A stretch of 64,000 nt of DNA, from the NCBI GenBank assembly GCA_964500465.1, contig CAZCNB010000001.1, positions 34,567-98,566 of the forward strand, read 5' to 3'. The notes beneath the pieces were generated by a model that was given only the letters and a program-made list of their open reading frames with translations, was not told the origin of the DNA and searched no databases. A program made the position numbers and the translations under genes. Of the stretch, positions 3 to 59,347 are shown piece after piece (positions within the stretch are counted from its first letter, which is position 1; each line of letters starts with the position of its first letter). Source of the stretch: an uncultured Candidatus Saccharibacteria bacterium (lineage in GTDB: Bacteria > Patescibacteriota > Minisyncoccia > Phycocordibacterales > UBA9973).

Positions 3-326
3 AAAAAGAAAGCACTTGTAGATGAGAAAAATACAGCAGAAATGATGATATTCTCAGCTGAGAAATCTCTAAAAGAGTATGGAGACAAAATAGATGCTAC
101 ACTTAAAGCAAGTGTTGAAGAAAAGATTAATGCAGTTAAGACCGCAAAAGATGGCACTGATATTGAGGCTATCAAATCTGCACTTGAAGCTCTTACAACT
201 GAAGTTTCAAAAATTGGCGAAGCTATGAGTAAGCAAGGTTCTACTCCTGAAGGAAGTACAACAGCTGAACCTCAAAGTGAAGAGATTAAGGATGCAGAAA
301 CAAAAGAGAATCCAGATAATAAATAA
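3..326 (+). CDS. dnaK: Molecular chaperone DnaK, C-terminal fragment (gene starts upstream of window)
   Basis: Frame from nt 3 translates KKALVDEKNTAEMMIFSAEKSLKEYGDK...; typical DnaK lid/C-terminal tail; immediately followed by dnaJ. Confidence 0.8.
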   Translation, partial: KKKALVDEKNTAEMMIFSAEKSLKEYGDKIDATLKASVEEKINAVKTAKDGTDIEAIKSALEALTTEVSKIGEAMSKQGSTPEGSTTAEPQSEEIKDAETKENPDNK

Positions 327-57011: not shown

Positions 57012-57704
57012 TTAAACGATTTCGTACAATTTACTAAGATCGTTATACTCTACATTTCCCCGGAAATATTCGGCGATTTTAGTGTCATAAGCCGCCAAAG
57101 TTTCAAACGTCCTCAGAAAACCCCGGAAACGCTGTGAGAGCGTTGTGTGGCCATGATGAGCGTTAATCTCACCAATGAGTGAATCGTAAGCTTCAGATGT
57201 GTAATCCGGTACTGTCATGACACGGTGGAAGTTTTTTCCAGCAGCTCGTAAAGCTGAAGGTCCGCCTACATCAATATGCCCTCGTGCCACTTCAGCAGTG
57301 ACATCTGCACTTGATATAACTTTTTCAAACGGGTAGAGATCCACCACCACAAGATCAATTGGCACGGCACTTTCTCTGGCCAAATCAGCCTGGTGAGCTT
57401 CTGAAAAAGTTTCAGTGAGATAACCGAGGAAAAACTTATGGTGGAGAGTTTTCACCAACCCTCCATCTGTTTCCGGCATGCCTGTGTATTGTGAAGCTTC
57501 AAACAGACGGCCTTTTGATGTTGAGAGGTCCATCTCTTTATCGAGATGGGTATAAGTTCCGCCGCTTGAAAAAATTTTCAAACCAGGACAGATACTGAGC
57601 AGTTGCTCAACAAGTTGTCCGAGTTGGCTTTTATCATATACTGATATAAAAGCATGCTTAACAGGTACTAAGTCCTGTATTTTTTTTACGTTTCTGATAG
57701 ACAT
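57012..57704 (-). CDS. Stand-alone IMP cyclohydrolase (PurH N-terminal MGS-like) domain protein
   Basis: FISVYDKS, SSGGT, YTGMPETDGGLVKTLHHK, PIDLVVVDLYPF, IDVGGPSALRAAGKN, TLAAYD align to PurH residues 1-200; no AICAR-transformylase domain; local GC clearly above window average. Confidence 0.8.
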   Translation of the reverse strand: MSIRNVKKIQDLVPVKHAFISVYDKSQLGQLVEQLLSICPGLKIFSSGGTYTHLDKEMDLSTSKGRLFEASQYTGMPETDGGLVKTLHHKFFLGYLTETFSEAHQADLARESAVPIDLVVVDLYPFEKVISSADVTAEVARGHIDVGGPSALRAAGKNFHRVMTVPDYTSEAYDSLIGEINAHHGHTTLSQRFRGFLRTFETLAAYDTKIAEYFRGNVEYNDLSKLYEIV

Positions 57705-57816
57705 ACAAAGTGGTTTTATTGTTTTTTGAATTTAAATACTTACTAGTAAATTAGCATTTACTTAATATTTGTCAATTGACACATAAATACCATTCAAGTA
57801 AACTAGGATTATACGT

Positions 57817-57940
57817 ATGATAAAAAATATTTCAAATATAATTGCATTTAACCCGGCACCGACTCCTAGATAGCAGTCGGGGTATATTATTTTTATCATA
57901 TACATTTAAGCGGCCCCGACCAAGAAGGGGTTTTTATTTT
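57817..57940 (+). promoter_or_regulatory. Candidate transcription attenuator: 18-codon leader peptide (MIKNISNIIAFNPAPTPR) plus alternative hairpins and U-tract upstream of ornithine cyclodeaminase
   Basis: Leader ORF 57817-57873 with 3 Pro codons in last 6; hairpin ccgact/agtcgg (57859-57880); 3' arm gtcggg complementary to cccgac (57915-57920); cccc/gggg stem + TTTTTATTTT (57914-57940). Confidence 0.35.
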
Positions 57941-57959
57941 GTAAAATCTCCAAAGCTAA

Positions 57960-58997
57960 ATGTTTAAAACATATAAAATGAAAATTATAACTGAAGAAGT
58001 ATTAACTGAAATAATAAAAAAGCACGGTTTTGAAAACTTTATAAAAGACTTAATGGTAAAGTTGAAGGAAGATTTTTCTAGATGGCAAGAATTCAATAAG
58101 ATTCCTCGTCCGGCTATGCATGTGCCAGGGGGAGTTTTAGAGCTTATGCCTATATGTGACGATAAATACTACACATTTAAGTACGTCAATTGCCATCCTA
58201 AAAATCCTGAATCAAACCTTATGACAGTTGTTGCAACTGGTCAGCTTTCTCGTATAGATACTGGATACCCACTTATGTTTGGGGAAATGACACTAATGAC
58301 TGCACTTCGTACAGCCGCAACTACTGCAATAGCTACAGATTTAATGGCAAGAAATGATAGTACAGTGCTTGCAATAATAGGCACAGGGGCACAGAGTGAA
58401 TTCCTAGTTAAAGCTATTGGAATGGTGCGTGATATCAAAGAAGTCAGGTATTTTGATACAGATACTAATGCGATGGATAAATTTGAGAGAAACATGGAAG
58501 GAAGTTCGTTTAAACTAATTCGTTGCCAAAGTGGAGAAGAAACAGTGTTGGGCGCTGATATAATAACCACATGTACTGCATGTAAAGCAAATGTAGATGT
58601 CTTAAAAAACTCCTGGATAAAAGAAGGGGTTCATATTAATGGAATCGGTGGTGATACGATTGGAAAAACTGAATTGGAATTTGAAATACTATCTAGATGT
58701 AAAATAGTGGTTGAATACTTCGATCAATGTGTTATAGAAGGGGAAATACAACGTTTTAAGAAAGAAGAAGCTCGTAGTAAGGTGTACGCTGAATTAAATG
58801 AGATAATTAGAGGTGAAAAAGAGGTGAGAATTAATGATGAAGATATAACTCTTTATGACTCAGTTGGTATTGGACTTGAAGATTATTCAGTATTAAGATT
58901 TACTTACGAACTAGCTAGTAAATACAATTTAGGAAAAGAATTAAATCTAACTCCAAATATAGCTGACCCTAAAGATTTAATAGGATTATTAAAATAA
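57960..58997 (+). CDS. Ornithine cyclodeaminase / mu-crystallin family enzyme
   Basis: Rossmann IIGTGAQSEF, OCD family N-terminal region. Confidence 0.8.
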   Translation: MFKTYKMKIITEEVLTEIIKKHGFENFIKDLMVKLKEDFSRWQEFNKIPRPAMHVPGGVLELMPICDDKYYTFKYVNCHPKNPESNLMTVVATGQLSRIDTGYPLMFGEMTLMTALRTAATTAIATDLMARNDSTVLAIIGTGAQSEFLVKAIGMVRDIKEVRYFDTDTNAMDKFERNMEGSSFKLIRCQSGEETVLGADIITTCTACKANVDVLKNSWIKEGVHINGIGGDTIGKTELEFEILSRCKIVVEYFDQCVIEGEIQRFKKEEARSKVYAELNEIIRGEKEVRINDEDITLYDSVGIGLEDYSVLRFTYELASKYNLGKELNLTPNIADPKDLIGLLK

Positions 58998-59008
58998 TAA
59001 TTAAACTT

Positions 59009-59347
59009 ATGATAACAATAGATGATTTTGAAAAAGTTGATATTAGATTAGGTAAAGTAATAAACGTAGAAGATTTCCCAGAAGCCAAAAAACCAGCGTA
59101 TAAACTCACAATTGATTTTGGGGCTGAAGTTGGAATCAAGAGGTCTAGTGTACAACTTGTTGGAACATATAAAAAAGAGGAATTAATAGGTATGCTTGTT
59201 TGCTGTGTGATAAATTTCCCACCAAGGCAAGTAGGCCCTTTTATGTCTGAAGTTCTAACTTTAGGATTCAAAAATACAGAAAGCATGGGATATGTACTTA
59301 TAACTCCTTCAAAAAATACTGTACAAATAGGGGATAAACTTTGCTAA
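59009..59347 (+). CDS. csaA: tRNA-binding domain protein (CsaA/Trbp111-like)
   Basis: FEKVDIRLGKVINVEDFPEAKKPAYKLTIDFG ... OB-fold tRNA-binding signature. Confidence 0.75.
   Translation: MITIDDFEKVDIRLGKVINVEDFPEAKKPAYKLTIDFGAEVGIKRSSVQLVGTYKKEELIGMLVCCVINFPPRQVGPFMSEVLTLGFKNTESMGYVLITPSKNTVQIGDKLC

Follow-up and report, generated by a model that had tools for sequence, protein, structure and literature searches.

Covarying alternative helices and a conserved proline-codon leader peptide suggest transcription attenuation of ornithine cyclodeaminase in Patescibacteria

Leader-peptide attenuation is a classic paradigm of bacterial gene control, and proline biosynthesis is not among its textbook pathways. 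In this study, we analysed an element that lies directly upstream of a gene for ornithine cyclodeaminase (OCD) in a 64,000-nucleotide (nt) stretch of the contig CAZCNB010000001.1, hereafter called the window, and that appears to belong to this class of regulators. The classical attenuators (trpL, hisL, leuL, thrL, pheL and ilvL of the Proteobacteria and those of ilvB, leu and trp in the Actinobacteria) have a common anatomy: a short open reading frame (ORF) with codons for the end product near its 3' end and a stop just before segment 2, alternative helices 1:2, 2:3 and 3:4, a GC hairpin followed by a U-tract, and a regulated gene that makes the sensed amino acid. All of these anatomical features were found by computation in the window element, whose function is predicted. 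Unlike the classical attenuators, to which it has no sequence relation, it is predicted to sense proline, its target is OCD rather than a pro gene of the glutamate pathway, and its host belongs to the Candidate Phyla Radiation (CPR)/Patescibacteria. It also has an alternating P-x-P-x-P instead of a codon run, an almost leaderless ORF, an extra covarying hairpin (4:5) and an outer helix round the terminator.

The nearest functional precedents for proline codons as a sensor are, by analogy, the mgtL and mgtP leaders of Salmonella, and the prolines of mgtL alternate too. The proline-codon short ORF mgtP of the mgtCBR leader confers a response to low prolyl-tRNA (PMC3641672), and the same response is reported for the proline-codon short ORF mgtL of the mgtA leader (PMC3641672, citing Park et al. 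2010). The likeness extends to a proline-rich ORF of ~17 codons over alternative stem-loops, at which a stall under low prolyl-tRNA(Pro) raises downstream transcription; the mgt leaders differ in being enterobacterial, in controlling Mg2+ transporters and virulence genes, and in being long multi-signal leaders with a Shine-Dalgarno sequence, and they have no homology to the window element. Proline T-boxes (those of Bacillus proBA and proI, and two probable examples in contigs L004 and L013 that are described below) share with the window element both the signal, tRNA-Pro charging, and the anti-terminator/terminator output, and those of L004 and L013 share even the target gene. However, a T-box binds tRNA directly and needs no translation, whereas the window element is predicted to use a translated ORF. 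Leaderless polycysteine short ORFs of mycobacteria, which respond to cysteine through codon runs, offer a further likeness as regulatory short ORFs at or next to the mRNA 5' end, but they concern another amino acid and another phylum, and the mechanism reported for them is not a 1:2/2:3/3:4 intrinsic-terminator switch (10.1101/834739).

An Rfam search of positions 57300-58400 with E values up to 10 returned only noise from unrelated families (E 5-10). Within that interval there was no match to the T-box family (RF00230), with neither a stem I nor a GGUGGUACC box, and none to the leader families (His_leader, Trp_leader, Leu_leader, Thr_leader, Leu/phe_leader and others). No attenuator was found described for CPR/Patescibacteria in Rfam 15. 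A literature search for proline or OCD leader peptides, attenuators in CPR/Patescibacteria and T-boxes upstream of OCD found no precedent, although subscription journals lay mostly outside this search and the absence is no proof.

The comparative evidence makes us almost certain that the element comprises a conserved, translated proline-codon leader ORF with covarying alternative helices. We further consider it probable that these parts form a ribosome-mediated transcription attenuator which senses prolyl-tRNA(Pro) supply and controls OCD. The features of this predicted switch in the window are the following.

57776 to 57804, + strand: promoter with -35 TTGACA at 57776-81, a 17-nt spacer and -10 TAAACT at 57799-804 (10/12 consensus match)
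57817 to 57873, + strand: leader ORF of 18 codons plus TAG, MIKNISNIIAFNPAPTPR, from ATG 57817 to TAG 57871-57873
57859 to 57864, + strand: segment 1, CCGACU, the 5' arm of hairpin 1:2, within Pro15-Thr16 (pairing and covariation)
57875 to 57883, + strand: segment 2, AGUCGGGGU, partner of segment 1 or segment 3, beginning 2 nt past the leader stop
57912 to 57920, + strand: segment 3, GGCCCCGAC, of which 57913-20 pair with segment 2 and 57912-17 with segment 4 (covariation)
57927 to 57940, + strand: segment 4, GGGGUU at 57927-32, the terminator 3' arm, running into the U-tract TTTTTATTTT at 57931-40 (folding)
57978 to 58997, + strand: OCD, 339 aa with the start MKIITEE, which converts ornithine to proline and ammonia (PF02423, NF005762)

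The same element is present upstream of OCD in all five closest OCD loci of the genome collection (L001, L002, L003, L007 and L008); the closest genomes are metagenome-assembled genomes of CPR/Patescibacteria (Paceibacterota, Nomurabacteria and contigs labelled Saccharibacteria). A degenerate pattern derived from these loci, in which TAG, GGGGTA, AAGCG, CCCC and GGGG were fixed and the bases that vary in segments 2 and 3 were left open, gave 34 matches in a metagenome collection, 25 of them non-redundant, and an OCD gene follows the leader wherever enough downstream DNA is present. Since the pattern fixed several bases, an unbiased test was made in which OCD proteins were traced to nine further contigs and these were searched with a covariance model built from the first set. 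The model found the element immediately upstream of OCD in 9/9 of the protein-chosen contigs (E 1e-13 to 1e-23), and a divergent GC-rich version was recognised in the Saccharimonadia contig L011 (36 bits). Overall, 38 distinct contigs have the element immediately before OCD; an alignment of 31 sequences was used for the covariation and masking analyses. Within the window, the covariance-model search detected a single copy and no second one.

The preliminary description of this locus had proposed an 18-codon ORF at 57817-57873, and reading the window sequence confirmed both the ORF and its three proline codons (CCG 57853-55, CCG 57859-61 and CCT 57865-67). Across the relatives the ORF is conserved as a coding frame ending in P-x-P-x-P-x-stop. 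Its length is exactly 18 codons in 25/31 sequences and 19-20 in the remainder, and indels within it always span 3 or 6 alignment columns, while those just past the stop are of any length. The start codon stands at a fixed distance in 38/38 sequences, and stops occur in frame +1 of 25/25 and frame +2 of 23/25 leader sequences. Prolines at -6, -4 and -2 from the stop (positions 13, 15 and 17) are found in 24/25, 24/25 and 25/25 of the 18-codon sequences, respectively. In these sequences the codons are CCC (19), CCG (3), CCA (1) and CCT (1) at the first proline position and CCG (16), CCC (4), CCA (3) and CCT (1) at the second, and synonymous third-base changes are tolerated even when they break the 1:2 pairing. 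Conservation of the peptide outside the three prolines is poor: AT-rich codons replace one another freely at positions 2-12, and the final residue may be K, R, I or T. The stop site uses all three stop codons, with TAG in the window, TAA in L062 and TGA in L011. The contigs picked through the protein alone have the same proline-codon pattern as the pattern-selected set. A tRNA-Pro gene was sought in the window for comparison of codon choice; none was found there, the tRNA genes being tRNA-Leu and tRNA-Ile only.

The leader ATG of the window is 12 nt downstream of the promoter end, and 29/31 relatives have a TTGACA-16..18-TAnAnT promoter whose end lies 6-13 nt upstream of the leader AUG. From this conserved promoter, transcription would start ~5 nt before the AUG, and with a promoter so close the leader ORF would be carried on a leaderless or nearly leaderless transcript.

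A natural variant of the ORF occurs at L060:2363-2492, where the leader TAG is mutated to TGG and four extra codons (…PAPAPKWQSG) lead to a TAA overlapping the end of segment 2; a terminating ribosome would sit deeper in the switch in this sequence.

The pairings read in the preliminary description are present in the window: ccgact 57859-64 with agtcgg 57875-80 as hairpin 1, gtcggg 57876-81 complementary to cccgac 57915-20, and cccc 57914-17 with gggg 57927-30 followed by TTTTTATTTT at 57931-40. Two extents had to be revised. The anti-terminator, given as 6 bp, proved to have 7 Watson-Crick pairs and one G-U pair (57876-83 with 57913-20), and the terminator stem, which had been described as only 4 bp, has 6 bp on folding (GGCCCC 57912-17 with GGGGUU 57927-32, including two G-U pairs), which eases the earlier worry over so short a stem. 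The helix energies in the window are -6.0 kcal/mol for 1:2, -12.4 kcal/mol for 2:3 and -8.3 kcal/mol for 3:4.

Both 1:2 and 2:3 are conserved and covary, as alternative pairings with a function would be expected to do from the preliminary description. Helix 2:3 forms standard pairs in 100% of the 248 cells of the alignment and includes 25 double-change cells, a number equalled by 0/500 shuffles, whereas slid controls were 25-59% paired. Full compensatory change occurs at three of its positions (GUC/GAC, GCC/GGU, GCU/AGC, ACU/AGU and ACC/GGU), and RNAalifold, unprompted, picks 2:3 as the consensus structure. For the nested fold of 1:2, the outer helix and 3:4, pairing amounts to 94.4% and double-change cells number 37, again reached in 0/500 shuffles. 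Hairpin 1:2 by itself is paired in 87.6% of cells, with compensatory change in 3/6 pairs (CCGACU/AGUCGG, CCGGCU/AGCCGG and CCAGCU/AGCUGG), and its mispairs fall at positions constrained by the proline codons. Helix 3:4 is 97.8% paired and mostly invariant, partly since the search pattern fixed CCCC and GGGG. In most relatives the terminator is GGCCCC/GGGGCU with a 6-nt loop; a terminator scan detected that of the relative L021 (6 pairs, 5 of them GC, and then a T-run), and a T-run follows segment 4 in 38/38 sequences.

The preliminary description had suggested folding the RNA with the leader codons masked, and this yields the predicted switch in the 31 leaders when the ORF upstream is masked too. 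In our masking model each leader was folded with everything up to the leading edge of the ribosome hidden. With the A site at the first proline codon the anti-terminator formed in 29/31 leaders, and with the A site at the second in 25/31; the outcome at the third was mixed, and at the stop codon the terminator formed in 31/31 and the anti-terminator never. Since segment 2 begins 2 nt past the stop, a terminating ribosome would cover it, as in trp-type logic.

In the mechanism that we propose, RNA polymerase would start ~5 nt before the leader AUG and a ribosome would translate the 18-codon ORF while the leader is being transcribed. With ample Pro-tRNA, the ribosome would reach the TAG and its footprint would hide segment 2, or, if it had already left, 1:2 would form; with segment 2 unavailable either way, segments 3 and 4 would pair, and the GC hairpin and U-tract would terminate transcription at ~57938-41. 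With scarce Pro-tRNA, the ribosome would wait with the first or second proline codon in its A site, covering segment 1 and not segment 2, so that the stronger 2:3 helix could form, block the terminator and let the polymerase read into OCD. The use of P-x-P-x-P rather than PPP suggests a pause that depends on tRNA charging and not on polyproline stalling of the EF-P type. The steps that we infer for this element are translation-transcription coupling, the act of termination and responsiveness to proline.

The assignment of the regulated gene is firm. Its product matches Pfam PF02423 (2e-89) and the NCBIfam equivalog NF005762 (417 bits against a cut-off of 350), and its closest solved structure is the OCD of P. 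putida (PDB 1u7h/1x7d, 4e-78). By this annotation, the gene downstream is one that supplies the predicted sensed amino acid, as in the known attenuators. The start of the gene had previously been placed at ATG 57960; it lies instead at ATG 57978. The homologues are nearly all 339 aa long and tblastn matches begin at the residue encoded at 57978, and ATG 57960 lies within the conserved outer helix, and several relatives have it in another frame or with a stop behind it. An automatic annotation from ATG 57960 (345 aa) would run 6 residues too long.

Other lineages place a different device before the same gene. T-box leaders (RF00230) are likely to be present before the OCD orthologues at L004:3727-3942 (Dojkabacteria, E 2e-9) and L013:198-449 (E 4e-4); both lie below the Rfam gathering score and were seen only with an E-value threshold, with none at the gathering threshold. 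Each has a GGUGGUACC box and a very short stem I, the terminal loop of which holds CCC and a purine (CCCCAG and UUUCCCG), and in L004 a terminator follows. The CCC of the stem-I loop is probably the specifier, which would make these T-boxes proline-specific in CPR-type genomes. If that is right, OCD is under tRNA-Pro control by two unrelated devices, and, given this predicted specifier, the T-box replacement would provide independent evidence for tRNA-Pro charging as the signal that governs OCD. The attenuation logic first proposed for this locus, with OCD as a gene of proline supply, thus draws support from the conservation of the ORF, the covariation of 1:2 and 2:3, the mask folding, the OCD equivalog and the T-box replacement.

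The element has further parts, which in the window are the following.

57884 to 57901, + strand: AU-rich spacer, complementary in the window to the leader ORF start (57814-33)
57902 to 57911, + strand: 5' strand of the outer helix, ACAUUUAAGC, with A57908 bulged (pairing and covariation)
57941 to 57951, + strand: segment 5, GUAAAAUCUCC, which pairs with segment 4 and the U-tract (folding, and covariation by eye)
57955 to 57963, + strand: 3' strand of the outer helix, GCUAAAUGU, containing ATG 57960 (pairing and covariation)

Segment 4 can pair with a downstream pyrimidine stretch in 36/38 sequences (mean -6.6 kcal/mol, mean z -2.6). In the window, this hairpin 4:5 (57927-37 with 57941-51) reaches -7.3 kcal/mol in the minimum-energy fold (z -3.0), or -5.6 kcal/mol when the stated pairs alone are scored, and covariants were identified by eye (GGGGCU/AGCCCC, GGGGUU/AAUCCC and GGGGCAU/AUGCCC). 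Hairpin 4:5 cannot form until RNA polymerase is past the terminator, and the combination of 2:3 and 4:5 (-18 kcal/mol) is more stable in the window than that of 1:2 and 3:4 (-14.3 kcal/mol). The outer helix encloses the terminator; it has 9 bp with a conserved bulged A and is ~97% paired. Several of its pairs covary (CA/UG to CG/CG to UG/CA), and its variants include ACAUUUGG/CCAAAUGU in L060, UGUCCAAGC/GCUUGGACA in L011 and a form without the bulge in L064. Its 5' strand abuts segment 3, which might allow the helix to stack on 2:3 in a pseudoknot.

The complementarity of the spacer to the leader ORF start forms, in the window, an AU helix of 17-19 bp (57814-57833 with 57880-57902; -13.9 kcal/mol, z -4). 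As a family feature this helix was rejected, the mean z over 31 sequences being ~0; it recurs in the closest relative, L055, with a covarying counterpart (UAAGAAUAAU with AUUAUUCUUA), and may shut off repeated leader translation in the window lineage. In many relatives, the spacer, which adjoins the 5' strand of the outer helix, is instead complementary to an AAGAAA-type region that adjoins the 3' strand, just 5' of the OCD AUG. These duplexes between the spacer and the ribosome-binding site (RBS) average -5.2 kcal/mol for cognate and -4.0 kcal/mol for non-cognate pairs (permutation p=0.0002, with relatedness uncontrolled). The window duplex reaches only -1.6 kcal/mol, and the feature is also missing in about a third of the relatives.

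Four loci (L007, L025, L026 and L028) have an insertion of ~35 nt between the outer helix and the OCD ATG that forms an additional GC-rich hairpin (CCCUCCGUCGC-UAAA-GCUAUGGCGGG in one example), and the Shine-Dalgarno sequence behind it is a stronger one, AAGGA; this insertion may be a further regulatory module. In L006:3900-4000, an OCD orthologue has a TTGACA-17-TATACT promoter and then only 'gcgttcaag aaagt acgtttaa', which looks as though the outer-helix strands were left and the whole attenuator between them deleted. The contig L040 and its duplicate L041 have an intact leader followed, ~70-280 nt past the leader stop, by only the C-terminal 69 residues of OCD, and look like a deletion of most of the gene.

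Several results weigh against reading the element as a transcription attenuator of the textbook kind. Masking the window with a single ribosome footprint lets the AU helix win and the terminator still form, so this thermodynamic model, rejected for the window, produces no anti-terminator; for the anti-terminator to appear there, the part of the ORF behind the ribosome must be masked as well, for example by a second ribosome or steric exclusion. With no ribosome present, 2:3 and not 1:2 with 3:4 is the thermodynamic optimum in 12/31 sequences, and in those cases only kinetics could provide a default 'off' state. About a third of the sequences have imperfections in hairpin 1:2. The window terminator is weak, with two G-U pairs among its 6 bp and a 9-nt loop, because of which the terminator scan missed it. 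The leader fold of the window is not unusually stable (z -1.26); the window alone is therefore only suggestive, and covariation and conservation in 38 distinct sequences carry the case. Finally, the textbook model does not call for the conserved hairpin 4:5, the outer helix or the complementarities of the spacer.

We speculate that 4:5 and the outer helix lock or stabilise the read-through mRNA or tune OCD translation. A bolder model, which we entertain tentatively and rather doubt, joins all parts in a five-segment switch (1:2, 2:3, 3:4 and 4:5) within an outer helix stacked on 2:3 as a pseudoknot, such that one stall would set both read-through and the later fate of the mRNA, be it OCD translation initiation through spacer/RBS pairing or nuclease protection of the U-rich tract. 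Under this model CPR/Patescibacteria would have a regulatory RNA class of their own, the first such, and the switch would directly attest, for these ultra-small symbionts, both coupling of translation with transcription and monitoring of a proline supply drawn from (host-derived) arginine or ornithine.

The same additional parts bear on a rival explanation, that the leader ORF and switch act mainly on OCD translation or mRNA stability, in the manner of erm-type translational attenuation. Here the leader conformation would decide whether the spacer and outer helix sequester the OCD initiation region, and the T-run would be incidental, the genome being AT-rich; a milder form is a dual mechanism of termination and translation. 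A covarying outer helix that ends 14 nt before the OCD AUG is what such a mechanism would use, as is a spacer complementary to the Shine-Dalgarno-like AAGAAA region in many relatives more strongly than in non-cognate pairs, although the permutation test made no correction for sequence relatedness and the complementarity is missing from the window and about a third of the relatives. The restriction of 4:5 to read-through RNA, where it makes the 2:3 state the more stable one, also fits. However, the outer helix is compatible with both conformations and so discriminates neither, and the GC hairpin with its direct T-run is kept in 38/38 sequences, even in the GC-rich L011. We therefore regard a mainly translational mechanism as improbable relative to transcription attenuation.

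Arrest peptides provide a second rival, with TnaC sensing tryptophan and SpeFL ornithine: the leader peptide might sense free proline or ornithine within the ribosome and stall it at or near the stop. The fixed ORF length, the conserved C-terminus P-x-P-x-P-(K/R/I)-stop and the use of ornithine by the regulated enzyme speak for it, and a proline near the stop codon is a feature of some arrest peptides. What makes this very improbable in our view is the free variation of the peptide at positions 2-12 and of its last sense codon, as well as L060, which reads four codons beyond the usual stop. In addition, a ribosome at the stop favours the terminator just as normal termination does, and arrest would add nothing, while tRNA charging as the signal is indicated by the sister lineages in which a T-box takes the place of the element. 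That the element is a structured RNA (a metabolite riboswitch or protein-binding leader) whose ORF is incidental and untranslated can be practically dismissed, for although the loop nucleotides CCUAAAUAGCAG and GGGGUAUAUUA are strongly conserved and the helices are more than a simple attenuator requires, the ORF has indels in multiples of three only, unlike the sequence downstream, a start codon at a fixed distance in all 38 sequences with the other frames closed, TAG, TAA and TGA alternating at one position, proline third bases that vary even where pairing breaks, and no Rfam family match.

Ribosome-mediated attenuation thus remains the reading we prefer. The mechanism is a known one, and what is new, within the Rfam and literature searched, is the amino acid, the target gene and the bacterial group; the conserved additions might make it a variant, and a further level of regulation could come to light through hairpin 4:5 and the outer helix. 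The evidence is unusually clean for a case argued by computation alone. The element offers a functional annotation from sequence, according to which this OCD clade would serve proline supply under regulation by tRNA-Pro charging, and it would imply translation-transcription coupling and intrinsic termination in organisms that are not yet growable alone. In evolutionary terms, it would provide a naturally occurring case in which one gene came under T-box control in one lineage and under leader-peptide control in a different one. At ~150 nt, the element is compact and amenable to in vitro testing.

The neighbouring genes of the window provide some additional observations. A gene for a CsaA/Trbp111-like tRNA-binding protein (59009-59347, + strand) begins 12 nt past the OCD stop, and at least 12 related loci likewise have this gene after OCD (L001, L003, L007, L027, L042, L050, L051, L052, L056, L058, L061 and L062). 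The two look like a conserved operon in which the tRNA-binding gene would also be under the proline attenuator. On the other side, a divergent gene (57012-57704, - strand) encodes a protein of 230 aa whose similarity to bifunctional PurH is confined to the N-terminal part (IMP cyclohydrolase) and scores far under the family cut-offs, and which appears to be a stand-alone domain protein. A near-consensus promoter-like site on the minus strand (57808-57835; TTGAAA-16-TATAAT, 11/12) overlaps the start of the leader ORF and faces this purH-N-like gene. The upstream neighbour varies between loci, and the site is therefore not counted as part of the element; if it is active, two promoters would stand back to back within 60 nt.

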